From an uncultured Pseudomonadota bacterium (GTDB lineage Bacteria > Pseudomonadota > Alphaproteobacteria > Acetobacterales > Acetobacteraceae), in the NCBI GenBank assembly GCA_963827925.1, contig CAWHDE010000007.1, positions 56,023-80,022 of the forward strand: 24,000 nucleotides of DNA. The letters are read 5' to 3'. Made by a program: the position numbers and the translations under genes. Positions 2,319 through 24,000 of the stretch are shown piece by piece (position 1 is the stretch's first letter; every line of letters begins with the position of its first letter). Below the pieces are notes generated by a model, which searched no databases, was not told the origin of the DNA, and worked only from the letters and a program-made list of their open reading frames with translations.

Positions 2319-3593
2319 TCAGGCTGCGCGGCTGACGCCGATACGGATTTCCGCGCCATCGATGGCACGGCAGACGCGTAAGCTGGCAGGGTTGAAACCG
2401 CGCGGGGCCGTGAAGCTGAACGCAGCCCGCCCGGCACCGATGCCGGCCTTCGCCAGATCCCTCCGGTAATGGCACGCCAGCGCCTCACCCAGCTTACGGT
2501 GGCCTGCGTAAAATTCCAGTGCCTGCGGCAATTCCGGCCAATCGATATCCTGCGCCCAACCCTCTATGCGCCGCCCATCCGCGATATCGACGCAGCCGCG
2601 CAGCGGGCCCGGTTTTACCCCCGGCGCGGCGCGGGCAATCACCGGGCGCAGCGCTTGCTCCAGCGCCGCTCCGTGCAGCGGCCGGGAGGCGCAGAGCGAA
2701 ATTTCATCCGGTTCGCCGTAGCCGGGATAAAGCGCATGAAAATCCGCTTGGTTTTGAAACTGGCGGCGCAGGCCGGGGCCATCGGCGAAGCTCTCGCTCC
2801 AGGCGCCCTCGGCCAGCAGGCAGTCATGGGTCTCGAATTCGGGCAGAAAATATTCCGCCCCCGCCCCGTCATGCGCCTGGGTGATCGTCACGCCATTCAC
2901 CAGCGCCCTGGCCAGCACCAGCACGCCGTTCACCAACATCGAATGGCCCGGCGAGACGTAAAGTGCGCGGTGCGGCAAGCCCTTCCCTAGCGCGCCCGGA
3001 TGGATGCAAACGGGAATACGCTCCCGGTTACCCCGTACCTCTTCCGGACCGAAACTCTGCCTGCCGATCCATTTGATCCGGCGCGGCCCGCCAAAGCGAG
3101 TGGGCAGCATGTCACCAATCCGCAAATCCGCCACGTCCCGCTCGCCCTGCATGGTCTGGATGAGCGTGCCGCGCCGGTAGCAGATCACGATCTCCGTGCC
3201 CTCCGCCACCGTATTGACGGTGAAGGCCTCCGCCGAGAGGCTGCCCACGAAATCCAGCGTGACACTCGTGCTGCCCTGCGCCAGGACCAGCCCCGTGCCC
3301 GGCGTAAACATCTCGCTGGCGGCGGTGAAACCTTCCAGCAGCAGCGCATCGCCTTGGGTGAAGCCCGCAATGCTCTCCCCGCCCGCGAGCTGCGCCACCC
3401 CGCCCTCCAGAACCCAGTCCGACCCGGTGGCGAATGAAATTTCGCTGAAACCCGAAAAGCTGCCGCCCATATCCAGCATGGCGGGCGTGGCGGAGCCGGT
3501 CAGTACCAGCGTGCCACTGCCCGCATGGTCCGTCACGTTGCCCTGGAAAACCGCCCCCGGCGCCACGGCGAGTTGCGCGCCCGCCGACGCCAT
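2319..3593 (-). CDS. Hint (bacterial intein-like, Hint_2-type) domain protein with a C-terminal domain of unknown function; probably the C-terminal part of one gene together with 3628..5121
   Basis: The Hint N-terminal block is C-YRRGTLIQTMQGERDVADLRIGDMLPTRFGGPRRIKWIG, with the Cys codon at 3180-3182. The Hint C-terminal block is FETHDCLLAEGAWSESF. The frame stays open upstream of the annotated Met (..CNAGTLAGSYAVYMASAG), continuing the GGxLxNxGT repeat of the upstream ORF. Confidence 0.8.
   Translation of the reverse strand: MASAGAQLAVAPGAVFQGNVTDHAGSGTLVLTGSATPAMLDMGGSFSGFSEISFATGSDWVLEGGVAQLAGGESIAGFTQGDALLLEGFTAASEMFTPGTGLVLAQGSTSVTLDFVGSLSAEAFTVNTVAEGTEIVICYRRGTLIQTMQGERDVADLRIGDMLPTRFGGPRRIKWIGRQSFGPEEVRGNRERIPVCIHPGALGKGLPHRALYVSPGHSMLVNGVLVLARALVNGVTITQAHDGAGAEYFLPEFETHDCLLAEGAWSESFADGPGLRRQFQNQADFHALYPGYGEPDEISLCASRPLHGAALEQALRPVIARAAPGVKPGPLRGCVDIADGRRIEGWAQDIDWPELPQALEFYAGHRKLGEALACHYRRDLAKAGIGAGRAAFSFTAPRGFNPASLRVCRAIDGAEIRIGVSRAA
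2787..3182 (-). other. Hint / bacterial intein-like autoprocessing module within the above protein
   Basis: This covers residues about 138-269 of the 424-aa ORF. It is bounded by the nucleophile Cys (ICYRRGT) and the LLAEGAWSES terminal block. Confidence 0.7.
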
Positions 3594-3627: not shown

Positions 3628-5121
3628 TTACAGGAAGCTGCCGCCCGCCAGATCCACCGCCACCTCGGTGCCGGAAATCAGCCCGTCATTCTCCAGCGTG
3701 CCGCCCTGCATCGCTACTGCCGCTTGGCCGGTAATGGTGCCGCTGTTGGTGACTTGGCCGCCGCCCATCCACAGCCCCATGGATTGCTGCCCGCCGCCAC
3801 TGAGCCACCCCTCATTCTCCAACGTGCCGCCATACAGCACCACACCGGCGCCAAGCCCCGTGCCCCAGATATATTGGCTGCCAGTGCCACCCTCCACGCT
3901 GCCCTGGTTCACCAGCACGGCATCGTTTGTGAGCACCACGCCGTTCCCACCGGAAACACCGCCATCCCCGCCGAGAATGGTCCCGCCATTGAGCAGGGAG
4001 CCACCGGAGAGCAACGCCCCCGCCCCGCCATAAGTGCCCGCTCCGCCGGTAATAAGTCCGTTATTGCTGGCGGCAAGCTGAGACGCTCCAGCCAGCCCCA
4101 CCCCGCCATGGGTGGCATAGGCCCCGCCGCCTCCGGCAATGGTGCCGCTATTGGTCAGCGTGCCCGCCCCCAAGATCAGCCCGCTCCCGGCCGAGCCCGC
4201 CTGCATCAGCGGATCCTCCGGCACGTCATTACCCTGGATGATGCCTTCATTGGTCACGAGGCCATTGGTCAGTTCCACCGCCGCGCCGCTGACGAAGCTA
4301 TAGCCCGTGGAAGGGAAGGACAAAGTCAGCCCACCGCCGCTTTCGATCCGCCCGTCATTCACCAGCGTGACGGTGCCGGACGCACCCCACACCCCGTTGA
4401 AGCCGCCTATATAGCCGCTATTGCTGACATAGGCCGCGCTGCCCAGCACCACGCCCTCATGCCCCGCGCCGGTGAGGGTGGCGCTGATGCTACCCGCATT
4501 GACGAGGCTGGCCCCCGCCTGCAGCACTACGCCAGACACGCCGCCAGACACCGCGCCGCTGGCCTGGTTCGTCAGCATGCCGCCATTGGCCAGCACCAGC
4601 CCGGCGGCGCCGCCGGTTATCTGCCCCGTATTCCGCACCTGCCCGGCGGCGCTCAGGCTTACCCCATAGGCTCCGCCCTGGATGAGCCCGTCATTCTCCA
4701 GCACACCGCCATCCAACTGGACGCCGATGCGCCCCAGCCCAACGCCAGCGCCTCCCACCCCGCCCAATATGGTGCCCTGGTTAATGGCAACGCCCCCGGC
4801 CAGCAGCGCGAGACCCGCCTCATTGCCCTCGATCAACCCGGACGAGGCATTGGTCACACTGCCCGCCCCGGCCAGTCGCAACCCGGCCCCCACCGCTGCC
4901 CCCGAGGCCAGCGTGAGGTCCGCCGCCAGCGTGCCCTCGTTCAGGAGAGTCCAGTCCGCCCCGGGGCCGCCATAGGCCGCGCTGGTGAGGCTGAAATCCG
5001 CGCCCGCCACACTGCCCGCCAAGGCGATGGTGACACCCGCCTGCACGCTCACCGGCGATTGCCCCGCCGCAGTCAGCAGCAGGGCGGCGGTACCGCTGGA
5101 ATTGATTGTCGTGCCGGACAT
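3628..5121 (-). CDS. Gly-rich parallel beta-helix repeat protein (autotransporter-passenger-like repeats), no obvious signal peptide; probably the N-terminal part of the Hint protein
   Basis: There are dozens of degenerate repeats of the type GGxLxNxGxIxGG (GGTLENEGWLSGG, AGTLTNSGTIAGGGG, GGSLLNGGTILGGDG, GQVTNSGTITG). A GGGAG RBS precedes the ATG at 5121. The ORF ends ..DLAGGSFL-TAA in mid-repeat. Confidence 0.8.
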   Translation of the reverse strand: MSGTTINSSGTAALLLTAAGQSPVSVQAGVTIALAGSVAGADFSLTSAAYGGPGADWTLLNEGTLAADLTLASGAAVGAGLRLAGAGSVTNASSGLIEGNEAGLALLAGGVAINQGTILGGVGGAGVGLGRIGVQLDGGVLENDGLIQGGAYGVSLSAAGQVRNTGQITGGAAGLVLANGGMLTNQASGAVSGGVSGVVLQAGASLVNAGSISATLTGAGHEGVVLGSAAYVSNSGYIGGFNGVWGASGTVTLVNDGRIESGGGLTLSFPSTGYSFVSGAAVELTNGLVTNEGIIQGNDVPEDPLMQAGSAGSGLILGAGTLTNSGTIAGGGGAYATHGGVGLAGASQLAASNNGLITGGAGTYGGAGALLSGGSLLNGGTILGGDGGVSGGNGVVLTNDAVLVNQGSVEGGTGSQYIWGTGLGAGVVLYGGTLENEGWLSGGGQQSMGLWMGGGQVTNSGTITGQAAVAMQGGTLENDGLISGTEVAVDLAGGSFL

Positions 5122-5130
5122 GAGACGCTC

Positions 5131-5150
5131 CCGGCGCCCATTTGCGCCGG
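5131..5150 (-). promoter_or_regulatory. Hairpin between the pssA stop and the repeat-protein start, partly covering the Shine-Dalgarno sequence
   Basis: CCGGCGC (5131-5137) pairs with GCGCCGG (5144-5150). On the minus strand the 3' arm runs into GGGAG, 6 nt before ATG 5121. There is no U-tract, so it is not a classical terminator. Confidence 0.3.
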
Positions 5151-5190
5151 AAGTGAAACTAAAATTACAAGTTGTTTAGAGCAACAGAAA

Positions 5191-6036
5191 TTAACCCATA
5201 GATTGCCGGTTGGGTTCTTCCTCTACCTCTTCCACCGCCGCGCGCCGTGCCTCGGCCTCGCGGGCCAGCTTGCGGTAGCTGCGCACGGAAAAGGGCAGCA
5301 TGACAATATAGGCCAGCCCCGCCAGCGCTCCGGCGAGATAGGGGTCAGCGAAGATCAGAGCGACGAACACCACCAAACCCAGCAGCAAGGGCAGGATGCC
5401 CGCCGTCGGGATCTTGAAATTCTTGAAGCTCCAGACCGGCAGGGTGGAGACGCAGAGCAGCGCCGTGATGACCAGGAAAGCGCCGGTGAAGAGCGGGTAG
5501 CTCACCAGATCCTGCAGCCAGAACTGGTTATGCTGGTTCGCCTCCAACCCCACGAAGAGCGGAAACAGCACCAGCCCCGCCGCAGCCGGAGCTGGCACGC
5601 CGGTGAAAAAATTATACGCGAAGGCCGCTTTAGGCGCGGACTCCAAGGCCGCATTGAAGCGCGCCAACCGCAGCGCCATGGCGGAGGCGAAGATCAAGGG
5701 CGGCAGAAACCCGATCGCCCCCCAGGGCTGCAGCGACCACATATAGAGCAGCAGCGCCGGCGCGACGCCAAAACACAGAAAATCCGCCAGCGAATCGAAC
5801 TCCGCCCCGAAGCGCGAAGTTGCCTTCAAAAGCCGCGCCAGGCGGCCATCCAGCCCGTCGATCACGCCGGAGACAGCAATGGCCAGAACCGCCGTGCCAT
5901 AGCGCCCATCCAGCCCCAGCCGGATGGAAGAGAGCCCGATGCACAGCCCCAGCAGCGTCATCAGGTTGGGCAGCATCCGGTTGAAGCTCAGCCCGGAGAA
6001 ACGCTGCCGCCTGGGCAGGCGGCGGATCGGCCTCAT
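5191..6036 (-). CDS. pssA: CDP-diacylglycerol--serine O-phosphatidyltransferase
   Basis: The CDP-alcohol phosphotransferase motif is DGLDGRLARLLKATSRFGAEFDSLAD (DGx2ARx8Gx3Dx3D). The protein is multi-TM. The gene overlaps psd by 4 nt. Confidence 0.92.
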   Translation of the reverse strand: MRPIRRLPRRQRFSGLSFNRMLPNLMTLLGLCIGLSSIRLGLDGRYGTAVLAIAVSGVIDGLDGRLARLLKATSRFGAEFDSLADFLCFGVAPALLLYMWSLQPWGAIGFLPPLIFASAMALRLARFNAALESAPKAAFAYNFFTGVPAPAAAGLVLFPLFVGLEANQHNQFWLQDLVSYPLFTGAFLVITALLCVSTLPVWSFKNFKIPTAGILPLLLGLVVFVALIFADPYLAGALAGLAYIVMLPFSVRSYRKLAREAEARRAAVEEVEEEPNRQSMG

Positions 6037-10908: not shown

Positions 10909-12033
10909 TCACACCCGCATCGGCATCAGAACATAGACGGCGGAATTATCGTCCTGGTCTCGCACCAAAGTCGGCGCCGCGCCATCGGCAAACGCGAACT
11001 CCACCTTGCCTTTGATCTGCTCCGTCACGTCCGACAGATACCGCGCCTGGAAGCCAATTTCCAAAGGCCCAGCCTGGTAATCCACCAAATCCCCGCCCAG
11101 CTCCTCAGAAGCGGAGCCCTGCTCGGCGGAGGCCGCGGAGATCACCAGCAGCTCCTTGGCGAGCGAGAGCTTCACCGGGCGATGTTTCTCGGCCGAAATG
11201 GCGGAGACGCGGCCCACCGCATCGTTGAAATCCTTCTTGTCCACACGCAGGATCTTGTCATTCCCGCGCGGGATCACCCGGTCATAATCCGGGAAGGTGC
11301 CGTCGATCAGCTTGCTGGTCAGCTTCATCGTACCGATGGTGAACTGGATGCGCGTCTCGGAAAGCGCCACCTCCACCTCGCCAGTCGCTTCGTCCAGCAG
11401 CTTGCGCAGCTCGGTCACGGTCTTGCGCGGAATGATGATGCCGGGCATCCCCGCCGCGCCTTGCGGCAACGGCTCCTCCACGCGGGCCAAGCGATGGCCA
11501 TCGGTGGCGACAGCGCGCAGCACCGCCCCGTCAGAGCCTTCAGCCGCGTGCAGGTAAATGCCGTTCAGATAATAGCGCGTCTCCTCGGTGGAGATGGCAA
11601 AGCGTGTACGGTCAATCAGCCCGCGCAGCTCCTGGGCGGAGAGCACGAAGCTGTGCGAGAGCTTGCCGGCATCGAGCTTCGGAAACTCCTCAACCGAGAG
11701 CGCGACCAGGCTGGTGGAATAGCGCCCGGCACGAAGCGCCAACTGGGCGTCTCCGCCCGGATGGTCCAGCTCGATCACCGCATTCTCCGGCTGGCGGCGC
11801 ACAATCTCATAAAGTGTCGCGGCGGGCACGGTGATGGCGCCGTCGCGAACCGTTTCGGCAACGACCTCCTCCACCAGCGCGATCTCAAGATCCGTCGCGG
11901 CGATGGTCAGCTTGCCGTCCTTCACCGAGAGCAGCACATTGGCCAGGATAGGAATGGTGTTCCGCTTCTCAACCACATTCTGCACGTGGGCGAGAGACTT
12001 CATCAACGTGGCGCGATCGGCCTTGAACTTCAT
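10909..12033 (-). CDS. dnaN: DNA polymerase III beta sliding clamp
   Basis: The 374-aa sequence begins MKFKADRATLMKSLAHVQNVVEKRNTIPILANVLL and also contains ..ISTEETRYYLNGIYLH.. and ..LMPMRV. It sits in the dnaA-dnaN-recF order. Confidence 0.95.
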   Translation of the reverse strand: MKFKADRATLMKSLAHVQNVVEKRNTIPILANVLLSVKDGKLTIAATDLEIALVEEVVAETVRDGAITVPAATLYEIVRRQPENAVIELDHPGGDAQLALRAGRYSTSLVALSVEEFPKLDAGKLSHSFVLSAQELRGLIDRTRFAISTEETRYYLNGIYLHAAEGSDGAVLRAVATDGHRLARVEEPLPQGAAGMPGIIIPRKTVTELRKLLDEATGEVEVALSETRIQFTIGTMKLTSKLIDGTFPDYDRVIPRGNDKILRVDKKDFNDAVGRVSAISAEKHRPVKLSLAKELLVISAASAEQGSASEELGGDLVDYQAGPLEIGFQARYLSDVTEQIKGKVEFAFADGAAPTLVRDQDDNSAVYVLMPMRV

Positions 12034-12144
12034 GGTACCCTTCCAGACAGCGACCGAATCCCCGGATTTTATGGACCGATTCGTACCTTAGACTAGCAAG
12101 GCGACCCAAAACTGGGAAGCGCCAGCAAATTCTCCGGAATCAGA

Positions 12145-12174
12145 ACGGGGCAAAGCGCTACCGCCCTGCCCCGT
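12145..12174 (-). terminator. Hairpin downstream of dnaA (weak terminator candidate)
   Basis: ACGGGGCA (12145-12152) pairs with TGCCCCGT (12167-12174). On the minus strand only a poor U-tract (TCTGATT) follows. Confidence 0.35.
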
Positions 12175-12194
12175 ACACGATCATAACGGCCGTC

Positions 12195-13634
12195 TCAGTT
12201 CTCCAACAGGCGCTTCAGCAGCTCCACATCCTCGGCGAAGGCAGCATCCTGGGCGATCAGATCCGTGATACGCGAAACCGCATGCATCACCGTGGTATGG
12301 TCGCGGTCGCCGAAATGCCGGCCGATATCGGGCAGGCTCTTGGAGGTGAGCTGCTTGGCCAGATACATCGCCACCTGGCGCGGCCGGGCAATGTTGCGCG
12401 CCCGCCGGGCAGAGGACATCTCCGCCACACGTATATTATAATGCTCGCAGACGCGCTTCTGGATCTCCTGAATGGAGATCTTGCGGTCATGCGCCTTCAG
12501 CACGTCGTGCAGCACCTCATGCGCGGTGTCGATGGTGACCTGCCGGTTGAACAGATTGGCATGCGCCACCAGCCGGTTCAGCGCGCCCTCCAGCTCGCGG
12601 TTATTGCTGGTGATCTTGCGGGCCAGGAATTCCACCACTTTCGTCGGCACCTCCACCCCCGCGCGCTGCGCCTTGGCTTCCAGAATGGAGTAGCGCAGCT
12701 CGAAGGTGGTGGCGTGCAAATCGGCCACCATGCCGCAGCCCAGGCGCGTGCGCAGCCTGTCCTCCAGCCCCGAAAGATCGGAGGGGGATTTGTCGGCGGA
12801 GATGACGATCTGCTTGCCCGCATCCACCAGCGCGTTGAAGGTGTGGAAGAACTCTTCCTGCGTGTTGTCCTTGCCGATCAGGAACTGCAGATCGTCGATC
12901 ATCAACACATCGACCGAGCGCAGCTCGTTCTTGAATTCCAGCGTGGATTGCGAGCGCAGCGCGTTGATGAAGCGGTACATGAAGCGCTCGGCCGACATAT
13001 AGGCGACCGAAACCGGGCGCCCGCCACGCGGCGTGTTGGACAGCTCCCAGGCGATGGCGTGCATCAGATGCGTCTTGCCCAGCCCGACGCCGCCATAGAG
13101 GAAGAGCGGGTTGAACCCGGCCGTCGCCGGCGCCTCGGCCACGCGCCGGGCACAGGCATAGGCAAACTCGTTCGGCTTGCCGACCACGAAGGTTTCAAAG
13201 GTGAAGCGCTGGTCCAGCGCCGCCATGTTCTCCGGGCGCTGCTGTTGCAGTGCAACAGGCGCCGCCACCGGCGCAGGCTCCGCCAAGTCCGGCACCGCCG
13301 GGCGCGCCGCCGGGGCCCCGGTGCGGAACTCCACACGCTTCACCGCCGGGTTTTCCTGCAGCCAGAAGGCCGCGATCAGCTCGCCATATTCCTTGTTCAC
13401 CCAGTCGCGCAGAAACCGAGTGGGCAGCATCACCACCGCCTCGTCGCCCACCAGCCCGCCAAAGCTCACCTGCTTCAGCCAAGTCCGGTACTCGACCTCA
13501 CCCACCTCCGCCTGCAGCCGCGCGCGCACGCGTGCCCACTGCTCAACCAGCCGCGCCTCGTCACTCCAGACCGCGGAGGTTTGCAGCGCAGCGCTGCTCT
13601 TACCAGAGGAACCGATCTCCAGGTTGATACCCAT
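12195..13634 (-). CDS. dnaA: Chromosomal replication initiator protein DnaA
   Basis: The Walker A motif is GGVGLGKTHLMHAIA. The AAA+ box is VDVLMIDDLQFL. The C-terminal DNA-binding region is ARPRQVAMYLAKQLTSKSLPDIGRHFGDRDHTTVMHA. I prefer the start at ATG 13634; the track ORF starts 11 codons earlier at 13667. Confidence 0.95.
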   Translation of the reverse strand: MGINLEIGSSGKSSAALQTSAVWSDEARLVEQWARVRARLQAEVGEVEYRTWLKQVSFGGLVGDEAVVMLPTRFLRDWVNKEYGELIAAFWLQENPAVKRVEFRTGAPAARPAVPDLAEPAPVAAPVALQQQRPENMAALDQRFTFETFVVGKPNEFAYACARRVAEAPATAGFNPLFLYGGVGLGKTHLMHAIAWELSNTPRGGRPVSVAYMSAERFMYRFINALRSQSTLEFKNELRSVDVLMIDDLQFLIGKDNTQEEFFHTFNALVDAGKQIVISADKSPSDLSGLEDRLRTRLGCGMVADLHATTFELRYSILEAKAQRAGVEVPTKVVEFLARKITSNNRELEGALNRLVAHANLFNRQVTIDTAHEVLHDVLKAHDRKISIQEIQKRVCEHYNIRVAEMSSARRARNIARPRQVAMYLAKQLTSKSLPDIGRHFGDRDHTTVMHAVSRITDLIAQDAAFAEDVELLKRLLEN

Positions 13635-13914
13635 TCTGCTTTGCCTGCCCCGCGAACACCACCGCAAACAACCTCTTTCCGCAAAGCTGAGGTCTCCGAA
13701 AAGACTCTACTTTCCCAGAAATGAGACAGTTGTAAACGGTCAATTGAGGTCCTGAGTTTAGGTCCAAACCACCCGATGAAGCAAGCGCTCAAATTCTCCG
13801 CCAATGCTGCCAAAGCGCTGACAGAATAAAAAAATATAGTAAAATCATATATTTATGAAGGCAAAACTTTCTTGCTTCCCGATTCGGAAGCTGCGCAAAG
13901 GCGCCATGCGGGGG

Positions 13915-19638: not shown

Positions 19639-20220
19639 TCACCCCGTCAGCCGCGCCACCTCCGCCTTCAGCCGCGGCAAAATCTCCTCTCCGAACCATG
19701 GGTTTTTCCGCTCCCACGCCATCGTGCGCCAGGAGGGATGCGGCAGCGGCATGAAGCGCCCGCCCGGCGCCTGGGCGCGCACAGTCTCCGTCATGCTCCC
19801 CTTGCCCAGATAGCGCCGTTGCGCGTAGCCGCCGACGAGCAGGATCAGCTCGATTTGCGGCATCCCCGCCAGCAGCTTCTCATGCCACAAGGGCGCGCAT
19901 TCCGGGCGGGGCGGTGCGTCGCCGCCATTGGGCAGACGCCCCGGATAGCAGAACCCCATCGGCAGGAAATTCAGCCTGGTTTCGTCATAAAAAACATCGC
20001 GGGCGATTCCCATCCAGCTCCGCAGCCGGTCGCCGGAGGCATCGTCGAACGGCAAGCCGCTTGCATGCACCTTCGTTCCCGGCGCCTGGCCGATCACCAG
20101 CAAGCGCGCCGTGGTGGTGACGCGGAACACCGGCCGCGCGCCCAGCGGCAGCACATCATGGCAGAGGCGGCAGGCGCGCGGCCTGCAGCTGCGGCTTCGC
20201 TCAGCCCTCGCTGCCGCCAC
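19639..20220 (-). CDS. Uracil-DNA glycosylase superfamily protein
   Basis: Supporting motifs are CRPRACRLCHDVLPLGARPVF, LLVIGQAPG, SGLPFDDASGDRLRSWMGI and the HPSWRT motif. The start is uncertain. I chose GTG 20220; the track ORF starts at 20325 inside petC. Confidence 0.75.
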   Translation of the reverse strand: MAAARAERSRSCRPRACRLCHDVLPLGARPVFRVTTTARLLVIGQAPGTKVHASGLPFDDASGDRLRSWMGIARDVFYDETRLNFLPMGFCYPGRLPNGGDAPPRPECAPLWHEKLLAGMPQIELILLVGGYAQRRYLGKGSMTETVRAQAPGGRFMPLPHPSWRTMAWERKNPWFGEEILPRLKAEVARLTG

Positions 20221-20909
20221 ACCCTGCGCTTGGTGACCACCGCCACAATCGACAGGAAGGCGAAGAAGATCACCGCCCTTAAGCCCACCGCATGCCGGGC
20301 CGAAAGATTTGGGTCCGAAGCCCACGTCAGAAACTCCGCCACATCCGCTGCTTCCTGCGCCGTGGTGGCTTGCGTGCCATCGGCGTAGGTCACCGCGTTA
20401 TCGCGCAGCACGGCGGGCATGGAAACCTGCCCGCCCGGAAAGGCGGTGTTGTAATAATGGCCGGAGAGCAGCGTCACACCCGCCGGCGGCGGGGCGAAGC
20501 CGGTGAGGAAATCAAAGATATAGCGCGTGCCGCCTGGGCGCTGCGCCACGATGGTGGAAAGATCAGGCGGCTCCGCCCCGCCCATATTCACCGCCCCGGG
20601 CTCTTTGAACCGGGAGTCCGCCGTGGCGGCACTGCCATCTGCCAGCTTCACACTGGCGGCGATGCCCGCCACCTGCTCGGGCGTCAGCCCCAGCCCTTGC
20701 AGATCGCGGTAATGCAGCGCGCTCAGGCCATGGCAGCTCGCGCACACGCCCTGATACACGGCAAACCCCCGCTGCGCGGCGGCGATGTCGATGCTGCCAA
20801 ACACGCCCTCGGACTGGAAATGCACGGGCGAGAGCGTGTCCTCCGCCCGCGCGGCAACGCCCGCCAGCAGCCACACCGCCAGCAGCGGCGCAAAGAAACG
20901 GCGCATCAT
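20094..20909 (-). CDS. petC: Cytochrome c1 (canonical motifs) with an unusual 45-aa extension after the C-terminal membrane anchor
   Basis: It has a signal peptide, the heme motif CASCH, EPPDLSTIVAQRPGGTRYIFDFLTGF, the SMP Met ligand region, and the C-terminal anchor GLRAVIFFAFLSIVAVVTKRRVW. The start overlaps the petB stop as ATGA. Confidence 0.85.
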   Translation of the reverse strand: MMRRFFAPLLAVWLLAGVAARAEDTLSPVHFQSEGVFGSIDIAAAQRGFAVYQGVCASCHGLSALHYRDLQGLGLTPEQVAGIAASVKLADGSAATADSRFKEPGAVNMGGAEPPDLSTIVAQRPGGTRYIFDFLTGFAPPPAGVTLLSGHYYNTAFPGGQVSMPAVLRDNAVTYADGTQATTAQEAADVAEFLTWASDPNLSARHAVGLRAVIFFAFLSIVAVVTKRRVWRQRGLSEAAAAGRAPAASAMMCCRWARGRCSASPPRRACW

Positions 20910-22030
20910 GCGGCCTCCATCGTCGTAACCAGCGGGGTGAGCACCAGGAAGTGAAAGAAGAACCAGAAGCTGAACAAGTCCGGCAGCGCCGCGCCCGCCG
21001 GGCAGGCAGTCACGAGGCCCAGCGCCAGCACATCCAGCCCCAGCAGCCAGGTCAGTGCCTTATAGAGCCAGCCCGGCCGCGCGCCGTTCGAGCGGTCCAG
21101 CCAGGGCAGCGCGTACAAAACCGCCGCCGCCGCGATCACCGCCCAGATATGCCCGGCCACGCCCGGAAACACGCCCGCCAGCCCGGCCACGGGGGTGAGA
21201 TACCAGGGGAAGGAAATGCGCGCCGGGACGGCAAGGGCCGAAGCCGGAATCGCATTCTGCGCCCCCTGCCCCCAATGCGGCGCGAAACCGAGCAGAATGG
21301 CAAACACCAGTGCCAGCACCGCAAGCGCGGCGAAATACTGCGCGGCATAGACGGGCCAGAAGGCAACCGCCCGCCCCTGCGGCGCCGGGCGCACCTGCCT
21401 AGTGGCAAGGCGGGCCAGCCAGATCACCAGCACCGCGCTGAGCGCCAGCAGCACATGGAACACCAGCAGCCGCGCCAGGGTGGAACCGCCCCCGATGCCG
21501 CCGAAAAACCACATCGCCACCGCACCGGGAAAACCGGAGAGCGTCAGCGCCGCCCCGGTGGCGTTGAACAGGGACCAATAGCCCCCAGCCCCGCCCGTCA
21601 TCACAAAGCCGAGCCAGCCGGTCAGCAGCAGCACCGCCAGCAGCTTGACCCAGAGCATCCAGACGAACTCCCCCGGTGCCCGGTAGCCGCGCACCAGCAG
21701 CGTGCGGAACAGATGGATATACAGCACCACGAAGGCGAGGCTCGCGCCGGTCGCATGGTAGCCCTGCACCAGCCAGCCGCCGCGCACCTCCCGCGCGACG
21801 CTCTGCAGCGACGCATAAGCATGGCGCGGATCGTAATAGACCGCCAGCACCACGCCGGAGGCCAGCAGCACCAGCAGCAGCGCCCCCAGCAGGTTGGGCA
21901 ATGTGGCAAGCCACGGCGCACCCGGCGCGCGGTCCTGCCGTATCAACCCGGCGCAGATCTCGCACAGGCAAGGCACGCGCGACGTCAGCCAGCCTTGTTT
22001 CGCATGTTCCAGTTTTGCGTCCATGCTCAT
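20906..22030 (-). CDS. petB: Cytochrome b-like subunit of a bc1-type complex; divergent (fourth heme His ligand and PEWY Glu absent)
   Basis: It is alignable to cytochrome b throughout: GGWLVQGYHATGASLAFVVLYIHLFR, LARLLVFHVLLALSAV, ISFPWYLTPV, ALPWLDRS. See the findings for the missing residues. Confidence 0.8.
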   Translation of the reverse strand: MSMDAKLEHAKQGWLTSRVPCLCEICAGLIRQDRAPGAPWLATLPNLLGALLLVLLASGVVLAVYYDPRHAYASLQSVAREVRGGWLVQGYHATGASLAFVVLYIHLFRTLLVRGYRAPGEFVWMLWVKLLAVLLLTGWLGFVMTGGAGGYWSLFNATGAALTLSGFPGAVAMWFFGGIGGGSTLARLLVFHVLLALSAVLVIWLARLATRQVRPAPQGRAVAFWPVYAAQYFAALAVLALVFAILLGFAPHWGQGAQNAIPASALAVPARISFPWYLTPVAGLAGVFPGVAGHIWAVIAAAAVLYALPWLDRSNGARPGWLYKALTWLLGLDVLALGLVTACPAGAALPDLFSFWFFFHFLVLTPLVTTMEAA

Positions 22031-22035
22031 GCCCC

Positions 22036-22593
22036 TCAGCCCAGCTGGATTTGCGCGGGATTGATGAAGCTGAAGCGCGGAATAACGAGATTGCGCCGCG
22101 CCGGGCCGGAGCGGACCCGCCCCAGCGCGTCATACTGGCTGCCATCGCAAGGGCAGAGCCAGCCATCGTAATCGCCGCGCGGGTCGGCGGGGCTGTTGCC
22201 CTCCAGCGCGCAAGGGGTTCCGGTGTTCAGCCCCACCACCACCACGAAATGCCCATTGCCAGGGGCCACGCGCGCGGCCAGCTCCGCCGGGTCAGGCAGA
22301 TCCGCCATCGCCACAACCGCAGCATCGGCGATCTGCTTGTCCGTCAGCCGCCTGATCAGCACCGGCACACCGGCCCATTGTACCGTTTTGGCGCTGTTAT
22401 CTGGAATATCGGAAATTGTAATGACCGGCCTTGCTTGCGCTTCGCCTGCCTCATCGGGGTTCAGCGCGTCGATCAGCGGCCAGATGATGGAGGCCACTCC
22501 CACGGCACCTCCCGCCATGGCCAGGATCCTCAAGAAATCGCGCCGGTCTTCGCCCCCATGCGCTTCAGTCGCGTTCGCTGTTGATTTAGCCAT
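22036..22593 (-). CDS. petA: Rieske-fold (ubiquinol-cytochrome c reductase iron-sulfur subunit-like) protein lacking 3 of the 4 cluster ligands
   Basis: It has the Tat motif RRDFLRILAMAGG, VQWAGVPVLIRRLTD, and the C-terminal GWLCPCDGSQYDALGRVRSGPARRNLVIPRFSF..IQLG. Box I reads NTGTPC instead of CTHLGC. Confidence 0.8.
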   Translation of the reverse strand: MAKSTANATEAHGGEDRRDFLRILAMAGGAVGVASIIWPLIDALNPDEAGEAQARPVITISDIPDNSAKTVQWAGVPVLIRRLTDKQIADAAVVAMADLPDPAELAARVAPGNGHFVVVVGLNTGTPCALEGNSPADPRGDYDGWLCPCDGSQYDALGRVRSGPARRNLVIPRFSFINPAQIQLG

Positions 22594-22697
22594 ATTTCGC
22601 TCCCTGGAAGATTAACTCTCCCTGAAACGCAGCGTGGCGGCTGAGCGCGAAAATTTCAAGAGTGGATCGTCTTCCCCGCTTGTCCTAAACGGGCACC

Positions 22698-23552
22698 ATG
22701 ACCACCAAGCCCCCGCATGAAAGCCTGAAGCCCGAGGCCATCGCCTGGTTCGCTGGCCTGCGCGACCGCATCTGCACCGAATTCGAGACACTGGAACAAG
22801 AGGCCGGGCCGAACCCCAACCGGTTCACACGCACCGCCTGGGACAGGCCGGGCGGCGGCGGCGGCGTGATGAGCGTGCTGCGCGGGCAGCTCTTCGAGAA
22901 GGCCGGGGTGAATATCTCCGTGGTGGAAGGCGAATTCACGCCCGATTTCGCCGCCAGGATCCCCGGCACGGAGGCAGGGTCAAAATTCTGGGCGGCGGGC
23001 ATCTCGCTGGTGGCGCATCCGCGCAGCCCGAAGGTCCCGGCGGTGCATATGAACACGCGCATGATCGTCACCGCCAAGGGCTGGTTCGGCGGCGGCGGCG
23101 ACCTCACCCCCCTGCAACCCGGCACCCCGCAAGCGGCAGAGGACGCCGCCTCCTTCCACGCCGCCTACAAGGCGGCCTGCGATCAGCACGACCCCGCTTA
23201 TTACGAAAAATTCAGCAAATGGTGCGACGAATATTTTTTTCTGCCGCACCGGAATGAGCCGCGCGGCGCCGGCGGCATCTTCTATGACTATCTGGATAGC
23301 GGCAGCGCCGAGGCTGATTTCGCCTTCACCAGGGACATAGGCGAAGCCTTCCTGGCCGCCTACCCGCCTATTGTGCGCCGCCGCATGGGCGAGGCCTACA
23401 CGCCCGAAGAGCGCGAGGCCCAGCTAATCCGCCGCGGGCGCTATGTGGAGTTCAATCTGCTCTATGACCGGGGCACGACCTTCGGCCTGAAAACCGGTGG
23501 CAATACCGAGGCGATTTTGATGTCCATGCCACCCGAGGTGAAATGGCCGTGA
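22698..23552 (+). CDS. hemF: Oxygen-dependent coproporphyrinogen III oxidase
   Basis: Supporting motifs are WDRPGGGGGVMSVLRG, ISLVAHPRSPKVPAVHMNTR, GWFGGGGDLTP, HRNEPRGAGGIFYD and RRGRYVEFNLLYDRGTTFGL. Confidence 0.93.
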   Translation: MTTKPPHESLKPEAIAWFAGLRDRICTEFETLEQEAGPNPNRFTRTAWDRPGGGGGVMSVLRGQLFEKAGVNISVVEGEFTPDFAARIPGTEAGSKFWAAGISLVAHPRSPKVPAVHMNTRMIVTAKGWFGGGGDLTPLQPGTPQAAEDAASFHAAYKAACDQHDPAYYEKFSKWCDEYFFLPHRNEPRGAGGIFYDYLDSGSAEADFAFTRDIGEAFLAAYPPIVRRRMGEAYTPEEREAQLIRRGRYVEFNLLYDRGTTFGLKTGGNTEAILMSMPPEVKWP

Positions 23553-23656: not shown

Positions 23657-24000
23657 TCAAGGCGTAATGCCGACCCCGCGTGGGGTAATGACCACGGAGG
23701 GCACCGGCGCCACCATAACGGGCGGGGGCGGTGCATAATAAACCGGGGGCGGCGGAGGCGGCGCGTAATAGGCCGGCGGCGGCGGAGGCGGCGCATAATA
23801 AGCCGGCGGCGCGGCATATACCGCCACACCCGGCGCCCACATCGGCATAGGGCCTACGTAGCCGTAGGCCGGACCCCAGCCCGCGTACCAGTGCCAATGA
23901 TGTCCGCCATCCCACCAGCCATGGCCTTGCCAGTTATTATAAGCGTGGCCGTTCCAATGGCCGTGACCGCCGCCCCAACCAGGGCCACCGCCATGATCAC
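23657..24000 (-). CDS. Low-complexity protein: Gly/His/Trp-rich region followed by PPPPPPxYYA repeats; the 5' end lies beyond the window
   Basis: Extending track ORF 23657..23848 upstream in frame to the window edge gives ..DHGGGPGWGGGHGHWNGHAYNNWQGHGWWDGGHHWHWYAGWGPAYGYVGPMPMWAPGVAVYAAPPAYYAPPPPPPAYYAPPPPPPVYYAPPPPVMVAP.... There are no stops, and a strong terminator follows immediately. Confidence 0.6.
   Translation of the reverse strand, partial: DHGGGPGWGGGHGHWNGHAYNNWQGHGWWDGGHHWHWYAGWGPAYGYVGPMPMWAPGVAVYAAPPAYYAPPPPPPAYYAPPPPPPVYYAPPPPVMVAPVPSVVITPRGVGITP

Follow-up and report, generated by a model that had tools for sequence, protein, structure and literature searches.

The 24,000-nucleotide window analyzed here (contig CAWHDE010000007.1, positions 56,023 to 80,022 of the forward strand, assembly GCA_963827925.1) carries at 20094..22593, on the reverse strand, three consecutive open reading frames (ORFs) in petA-petB-petC order. 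They match the Rieske, cytochrome b and cytochrome c1 families of the cytochrome bc1 complex (complex III) in Pfam and NCBIfam and make up the petABC operon of an Acidocella species (Acidocellaceae, Alphaproteobacteria). As encoded, the products contain no ligand set for a [2Fe-2S] cluster and none for a bis-histidine heme bH, and the signatures of the quinol oxidation (Qo) and quinone reduction (Qi) sites are lost. The heme bL and cytochrome c1 motifs are intact, the folds of the operon proteins are predicted to be intact as well, and all three genes are under purifying selection. This ligand-less Acidocella bc1 is already known, having been published as the 'deranged bc1 complex'. We favor, with some reserve, a structural role, in which the complex is retained as a membrane assembly without catalytic activity. 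The three genes are translationally coupled: the ATG of cytochrome b follows the Rieske stop codon by 5 nt, c1 starts within the stop of cytochrome b (ATGA), and Shine-Dalgarno-like GGGAG and GGAGG sequences precede the starts of the operon genes.

The first gene encodes a protein that keeps the twin-arginine translocation (Tat) motif and the overall architecture of a Rieske iron-sulfur protein (ISP), with the following features.

22036..22593, reverse strand: petA-like gene, Rieske-fold subunit without [2Fe-2S] ligands, 185 aa (PF10399, TIGR01416, fold model).
22540..22545, reverse strand: twin-arginine codons R17 and R18 of the Tat/anchor motif RRDFL; R18, F20 and L21 are invariant in the family, R17 and D19 nearly so.
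22210..22227, reverse strand: box I remnant N123-T-G-T-P-C128 (canonical C-T-H-L-G-C), from alignment and family conservation.
22138..22155, reverse strand: box II remnant C147-P-C149-D150-G-S (canonical C-P-C-H-G-S), from alignment and family conservation.

The protein matches PF10399, the N-terminal Tat/anchor domain, with 48.5 bits and TIGR01416 with 120 bits, over the cut-off of 97.4, and reaches only 17.3 bits against the Rieske domain PF00355, under the cut-off of 20.3. Its AlphaFold2 model has a pLDDT >90 over residues 55-185, which form the soluble domain. This model superimposes on the bovine Rieske fragment 1rie with a TM score of 0.95 and a root-mean-square deviation of 1.4 Å (Foldseek), and on the R. 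sphaeroides soluble domain at 1.6 Å. An earlier reading of this DNA from its letters and translations (hereafter the sequence-only reading) had stated that the Tat motif and the Rieske fold are kept, as borne out by the PF10399 match and by the predicted fold.

That reading had also stated that one Cys and both His ligands of the cluster are replaced. In alignments with solved bc1 structures and the R. sphaeroides ISP, the canonical G-V-C-T-H-L-G-C pairs with G-L-N-T-G-T-P-C, and C-P-C-H-G-S with C-P-C-D-G-S. The Cys ligand of box I is thus Asn123 and its His ligand Gly, the His ligand of box II is Asp150, and both disulfide cysteines, Cys128 of box I and Cys149 of box II, are kept. The C-x-H and C-x-x-H patterns that hold a Rieske cluster read N-T-G and C-P-C-D. 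A census of the whole protein, which does not depend on any alignment, found Cys128, Cys147, Cys149, His12 and a non-conserved His115 only; a site of two Cys and two His is therefore impossible, and the soluble domain has no conserved His. The census and the alignments agree on the replaced ligands, and the alignments, a comparison proposed in the sequence-only reading, place no Cys or His at the three replaced positions. The same replacements are carried by every ortholog, so that both a frameshift and a sequencing artefact are ruled out as their source. Asn123 and Asp150 are each 100% conserved across 159 family sequences, and the first His ligand position is Gly or Ala. Cys147, the last remaining Cys ligand, is Ser in about 10 members, so that three cluster ligands are lost in the window protein and four in the members with Ser147. 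No part of the Rieske-like protein is better conserved than the loops that once bound the cluster.

The second gene encodes a cytochrome b homolog in which one of the two heme sites and both quinone sites are altered. Its features are listed from the N-terminal side.

20906..22030, reverse strand: petB-like gene, cytochrome b homolog with the heme bL ligand pair only, 374 aa (PF00033, a weak match at 77.7 bits).
21755..21757, reverse strand: His92, helix B ligand of heme bL, invariant in the family.
21713..21715, reverse strand: His106, vestigial helix B ligand of heme bH, kept in the window; H, Y, L, A, F, T, Q, S, G, K or W in the family.
21572..21595, reverse strand: cd-loop GGAGGYWS in place of PWGQMSxWG, from alignments.
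21455..21457, reverse strand: His192, helix D ligand of heme bL, invariant in the family except in locus L026.
21413..21415, reverse strand: Ala206, site of the missing helix D His of heme bH (H192+14), from alignments.
21200..21211, reverse strand: F-P-W-Y in place of the Qo motif P-E-W-Y; Pro275 stands at the catalytic Glu position in 100% of the family.

The protein matches PDB cytochrome b at E=1e-36, and its AlphaFold2 model (pLDDT 87, pTM 0.86) gives TM scores of 0.86-0.89 to the cytochrome b chains of bc1 complexes. According to the sequence-only reading, three of the cytochrome b His residues are kept, the fourth axial His is Ala, PEWY has become FPWY and PWGQMSxWG has become GGAGGYWS; the alignments reproduce each of these points. 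The loss of the bis-His site for heme bH is not peculiar to the window. Among 124 parsed cytochrome b sequences, 23 keep the helix B His only, 12 the helix D His only and 89 neither, and both are present in none (0/124). All 41 canonical loci have the four His residues of hemes bL and bH together with PEWY (PDWY/PVWY-type variants occur elsewhere) and PWGQMSxWG, and all family loci lack this set. In the window, neither PEWY nor PWGQMSxWG was found at the Qo site. At the Qi site, the stretch after helix D has no His and no GSNNP, and the Lys that is present in 100% of canonical loci is Gln231 in 95% of the family. Another family-fixed switch replaces Asn by His252 in 96% of the cytochrome b sequences. 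The His92/His192 pair suggests that heme bL is retained.

The locus excepted above, L026, belongs to the metagenome-assembled genome (MAG) NGEE_A_bin39. It is the sole family member with a non-His second bL ligand: Leu stands in place of His192. This may reflect an error in sequencing, or L026 may have lost heme bL as well. His360 of cytochrome b was considered as a new family-specific ligand and rejected, as the canonical locus L060 has the same FFHFLVL motif.

The third gene is a canonical cytochrome c1.

20094..20909, reverse strand: petC, canonical cytochrome c1 (PF02167, 204.6 bits); the end equivalent to that of the orthologs lies at about 20201-20203.
20730..20744, reverse strand: heme-binding motif C56-A-S-C59-H60, kept.
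20418..20420, reverse strand: Met164, sixth heme ligand (S-M-P-A-V-L), kept.
20199..20216, reverse strand: one inserted nucleotide (an extra C), three codons ahead of the stop conserved among c1 orthologs, from an alignment with five of them.

The CxxCH and PPDLS motifs and the Met ligand are intact in the c1 of all family loci, and the window protein also has the C-terminal transmembrane anchor; the description of its CASCH, PPDLS and Met-ligand region as kept was correct. The extra C puts the c1 TGA (20201-20203) out of frame and adds an unconserved tail of 36 aa that overlaps the downstream UDG-family gene. The c1 ORF of 271 aa is thus 36 residues overlong, the orthologs ending at about 235 aa, and removal of the extra C restores a protein of 235 aa that ends in KRRVWRQEG before the stop. 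The insertion spares the heme domain and the transmembrane anchor, and may be a real mutation or a sequencing error.

By its distribution, the loss of the bc1 ligands is a trait of the Acidocella lineage and not a lesion. A protein search with the cytochrome b returned 94 clusters at 42-90% identity, and those with names are Acidocella or Rhodospirillales MAGs. A search with the Rieske-like protein returned 190 relatives, and all 120 of those listed match PF10399 only, with no Rieske domain match. We also scanned genomes for the cytochrome b, taking one genome per species and the best 80 loci. Of these loci, 39 belong to the family, at 41-90% cytochrome b identity, and all come from Acidocella or Acetobacteraceae MAGs, including A. 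aromatica DSM 27026, A. facilis ATCC 35904 and A. aquatica NBRC 112502. The closest match to the window, at 90%, is from MAG SMAG_U15134, and a look-up by exact sequence found no record identical to the window's cytochrome b. Below 41% the matches drop to canonical cytochrome b of other Alphaproteobacteria at 28-36% identity. In about 39 genomes, with cytochrome b identities as low as about 41%, none of the three ORFs is disrupted, and the search for the same substitutions in orthologs, as put forward in the sequence-only reading, found them in every one.

The 41 canonical loci within this set of 80 include no Acidocella record, which is suggestive only. With the canonical cytochrome b of L060 as a probe for a second petABC, no Acidocella names and no contigs of chromosome length occurred among the matches listed, all of at least 82% identity. 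The wording of PMC10715153, the paper describing the deranged bc1, implies that Acidocella has no second canonical bc1 operon. One MAG, DATJXU01 (Acidocella sp. SMAG_U15134), has two degenerate operon copies, L003 and L012, at 90% and 55% cytochrome b identity to the window, the second on a contig of 2.5 kb. These most likely represent two Acidocella populations binned together and not a true duplication.

The gene on the other side of the operon start links the family to canonical bc1 loci.

22594..22697, no strand: intergenic region of 104 bp between the divergent petA-like gene and hemF, with a GGGAG Shine-Dalgarno sequence ahead of the petA ATG.
22698..23552, forward strand: hemF, oxygen-dependent coproporphyrinogen III oxidase (PF01218, 324.9 bits), the divergent neighbor that marks the ancestral petABC locus.

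hemF adjoins the degenerate operon in every Acidocella-family locus of sufficient length. A divergent hemF also lies beside canonical petABC in Azospirillum, Rhodopila, Stellaceae, Paracaedibacter, a Sphingomonadales MAG and the canonical Acetobacteraceae locus L060. Because this neighbor is common to canonical operons, the Acidocella operon is an ortholog and not a paralog: it occupies the ancestral petABC locus, where it descends from a canonical ubiquinol-cytochrome c reductase. The divergent hemF-petABC layout (22698..23552 in the window; loci L042-L082) is kept across many alphaproteobacterial orders and joins a heme-biosynthesis gene to the bc1 operon. A sigma-70 consensus was not found in the 22594..22697 intergenic region, and in this GC-rich DNA promoter and terminator scans were uninformative. 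The downstream synteny (UDG, DUF2189, GNAT) was considered as a functional clue and rejected, since it is kept in the closest subclade only.

Selection on the operon was measured from the ratio of nonsynonymous to synonymous substitution rates (dN/dS) by NG86 in nine closely related genomes. The medians are 0.22 for the Rieske-like gene, 0.27 for cytochrome b, 0.16 for c1 and 0.11 for hemF, and the bootstrap 95% upper bounds, from four pairs, are at most 0.38 for all three operon genes, all of which are under purifying selection. Because NG86 dS is compressed in GC-rich genomes, relaxation was measured as protein distance normalized to hemF and not as absolute dN/dS. On this scale, and relative to canonical lineages, cytochrome b evolves 3.8-fold, the Rieske protein 1.6-fold and c1 1.3-fold faster. 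Within cytochrome b the relaxation is concentrated in the catalytic elements: the ratio of family to canonical conservation is 0.47 in the bH half of helix D, 0.54 in the ef/PEWY loop, 0.58 in the de/Qi loop and 0.66 in the cd loop, and about 1.0-1.3 in helices E-H, as in canonical enzymes.

Bifurcated quinol oxidation needs the Rieske cluster as high-potential acceptor and a mobile head that carries electrons to c1, and the distance from heme bL to heme c1 is too great for direct transfer. Since no iron-sulfur shuttle is encoded and these hemes are too far apart, we infer that the Acidocella complex cannot oxidize quinol or run the Q-cycle; its cytochrome c1 would be electrically isolated from the membrane quinone pool. 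The sequence-only reading had likewise held that the complex cannot run the Q-cycle and keeps heme c1 and perhaps one b heme, which fits all sequence-level tests. In the non-catalytic assembly that we favor, the scaffold would consist of the cluster-less Rieske protein and of cytochrome b, in which heme bL would serve folding. Its function would be to hold cytochrome c1, redox-active and anchored in the membrane, to stabilize partners such as complex I or the aa3 oxidase, or both, and cytochrome c1 would exchange electrons with periplasmic carriers only.

Several observations limit this reading. Asn123, Asp150, and cytochrome b His252 and Pro275 are invariant or nearly so. An inert site should drift in the way seen at the heme bH ligand positions, and the Rieske tip may thus have acquired a specific role of its own. 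The Arg whose canonical counterpart touches the propionate of heme bL is not constant across the family, so that the His pair is the one sign that heme bL is retained. The Azospirillum controls gave dN/dS of 0.12-0.20, and all such absolute values are approximate owing to the compressed dS.

In the foremost alternative, possible if unlikely, the complex has been repurposed. The remodeled Rieske tip (Asn123, Cys128, Cys149, Asp150 and Cys or Ser147) and the Qo pocket (Pro275, His252) would then make up a new binding or catalytic site, for example a mononuclear metal site or a docking site. The complex would have a new specific task, such as that of a c1-centered module through which electrons enter or leave the iron redox chemistry of these acidophiles. 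Conservation of the replacement residues at 96-100%, in sequences that are otherwise 45-60% identical, argues for such a site, as do the conservation of the former cluster-binding loops noted above and the near-canonical constraint on c1. According to PMC10715153, these taxa also have a working cytochrome oxidase and the Cyc2/Cyc1 pathways for iron. However, with Cys147 replaced by Ser in some members and the first His by Gly or Ala, few plausible metal ligands are left, and Asn and Asp may do no more than hold the loops by hydrogen bonds now that the cluster is gone. Nor does the operon have a new conserved partner gene, the ancestral hemF alone being syntenic across the family loci. A more specific form of this explanation, in which the Rieske tip and the remodeled Qo surface form the new site and the complex serves as a c1-centered, quinone-independent electron module or docking platform specific to the iron-linked respiration of Acidocella at low pH, seems to us somewhat less likely still. 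If it were true, the operon would encode a repurposed complex III rather than an inert scaffold.

It is improbable that the complex is a residual redox enzyme in which quinol oxidation is linear and not bifurcated, as in bc1 blocked by antimycin, with an unconventionally ligated cluster or another partner as the high-potential acceptor. The ligands of heme bL, the PWY of the ef loop and c1 are conserved, and an analogy between loss of bH and linear flow is discussed in PMC10715153. The same paper nevertheless notes that this 'back door' to linear flow is shut once the ISP ligands are gone. The high-potential acceptor is missing, as three of the four cluster ligands are gone in every member and no conserved His is left; in addition, the Qo Glu is Pro throughout the family and the cd loop is remodeled.

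The fast evolution of cytochrome b, the drift of the bH ligand positions and the c1 insertion, which is the sole lesion in the window, are what would be expected of pseudogenes in the making. A decaying relic under neutral drift is nonetheless very improbable. Pseudogenization is excluded by dN/dS values of 0.16-0.27 with the upper bounds given above. The ORFs are intact across the family, the start/stop coupling and Shine-Dalgarno sites are kept, the predicted folds are confident, and the c1 lesion leaves the heme domain and the anchor of that protein untouched. The sequence-only reading had offered three outcomes, a decaying relic, a structural scaffold or a repurposed membrane complex, and had asked for dN/dS as a check on neutral drift: the ratios are far from 1, and with the intact ORFs and fixed replacements they remove the relic from the list. 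An artefact of sequencing or assembly, or a misalignment hiding canonical ligands, can practically be dismissed: the c1 insertion alone may be an error of this kind, and the same motifs recur in independent isolates and MAGs, the Cys/His census is alignment-independent, and the model superimposes on Rieske domains at 1.4-1.6 Å.

Altered Rieske-type proteins also occur outside this family. In a search of representatives at 50% identity, the Acidocella Rieske-like family forms one representative (294 bits), followed by the next match at 189 bits, and 23 of the 150 best representatives are without both cluster-binding boxes. Among these 23, a separate group of about 11 bc1-type ISP-like proteins (P0252, P0254, P0255, P0259, P0275, P0296, P0307, P0312, P0342, P0348 and P0354) keeps the Tat motif, anchor and hinge and has five invariant Cys residues. 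Their box I is C-T-x-x-x-C with a variable His, and in box II, C-x-C-C-(G/A)-(S/A), the His is replaced by Cys. This ligand set suggests an all-Cys cluster or none. A gene of this CPCC type lies at 4890..5588 of locus L136 (and also in L129, L135 and L137), between an AI-2E transporter and an FAD amine oxidoreductase. L136 is the sole long locus of this type recovered, most of the ISPs retrieved in the search for such loci being canonical. Its gene is an orphan, as neither cytochrome b nor c1 is encoded less than 5 kb away. Five further ISP-like proteins outside the Acidocella family (P0216, P0227, P0293, P0295 and P0346) have other altered ligand sets, among them GVGPDDGC...SPCDGS, CGRDGG...CPIDGS, CTHDAC...CPCNGT and CPCDAC. 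Loss or change of the Rieske ligands in bc1-type ISPs may thus have happened several times. Four loci from Stellaceae-like MAGs (L042, L044, L046 and L049) have a fully canonical cytochrome b, with four His and PEWY, and hemF nearby; no upstream Rieske gene was found in them by tblastn with the Acidocella Rieske-like query at E<=1e-5. Their ISP is either too divergent to detect or encoded elsewhere.

The rest of the window is core chromosome. It includes dnaA and dnaN at 10.9-13.7 kb (10909..13667), about 7 kb off the operon, which places it near the chromosomal replication origin. An ORF of 424 aa at 2319..3593, on the reverse strand, has a Hint_2 domain (PF13403, 129.6 bits). A small proline-rich ORF at 23657..23848, also on the reverse strand, has repeated PPAYYAPPPPPP units and no Pfam match.

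The published 'deranged bc1 complex' was described by Degli Esposti et al. (2023, Microbiol Spectr 11:e00575-23, PMC10715153) in acidophilic Acetobacteraceae/Acidocellaceae. In it the heme bH His residues of PetB are partly or wholly lost, c1 is intact, the gene order is petABC, and the ISP is without three or four cluster ligands and keeps the disulfide Cys pair. The authors suggest that the complex is non-functional and retained to stabilize complex I, citing Stroh et al. 2004 on Paracoccus, and that the cytochrome oxidase is fed through Cyc2/Cyc1 iron oxidation instead. The window operon, with its ISP ligand loss, its kept disulfide and its acidophilic Acetobacterales host (Acidocella), is the identical object, different in nothing of kind, and adds a further Acidocella genome. 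Its value is therefore confirmatory. New here are the selection and rate measurements, the 0/124 result for heme bH, the fold models and the orthology based on hemF, together with the findings that the bL pair and the replacement residues Asn, Asp and Pro are invariant and that the Qo and Qi signatures are lost. The quantitative results make the published picture sharper. A literature search for expression of the operon, proteomic data or an experimental test of its function found nothing usable, and a 2015 paper on bd oxidase does not mention the bc1 defect. A complex III that is without its catalytic cofactors and is under selection genus-wide is a natural experiment on what the bc1 architecture does beyond the Q-cycle; candidate roles are supercomplex assembly, stabilization of complex I and a membrane anchorage for cytochrome c1. 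A further question that follows from it is by what route these acidophiles supply their cytochrome oxidase with electrons.

Like the canonical bc1 complexes of R. sphaeroides (2qjp, 2fyn) and P. denitrificans (2yiu), the Acidocella complex is encoded by a three-gene operon beside hemF, with a Tat-anchored Rieske fold (TM 0.85-0.95), an eight-helix cytochrome b fold (TM 0.86-0.89), the bL ligands, and the CxxCH and Met of c1. In contrast to them, it has no [2Fe-2S] ligands and no bis-His bH site, the Glu of PEWY is Pro, PWGQMSxWG is GGAxxYWS, the Qi Lys is Gln, GSNNP is absent, and cytochrome b evolves several times faster, as measured above. The COX1-like protein of Acetobacter, which is encoded beside ctaB and is without metal ligands, is likewise a retained respiratory subunit with a proposed structural role; this likeness is drawn from the text of PMC10715153, and the protein differs in being a single subunit of another enzyme family. 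Closer at hand is petBC of Acidiphilium, described in the same paper. There, as in Acidocella, the heme bH site of cytochrome b is lost, with both His residues gone in Acidiphilium, and a cytochrome oxidase is still present; Acidiphilium is reported to have no ISP gene at all, whereas Acidocella keeps a conserved, cluster-less ISP.

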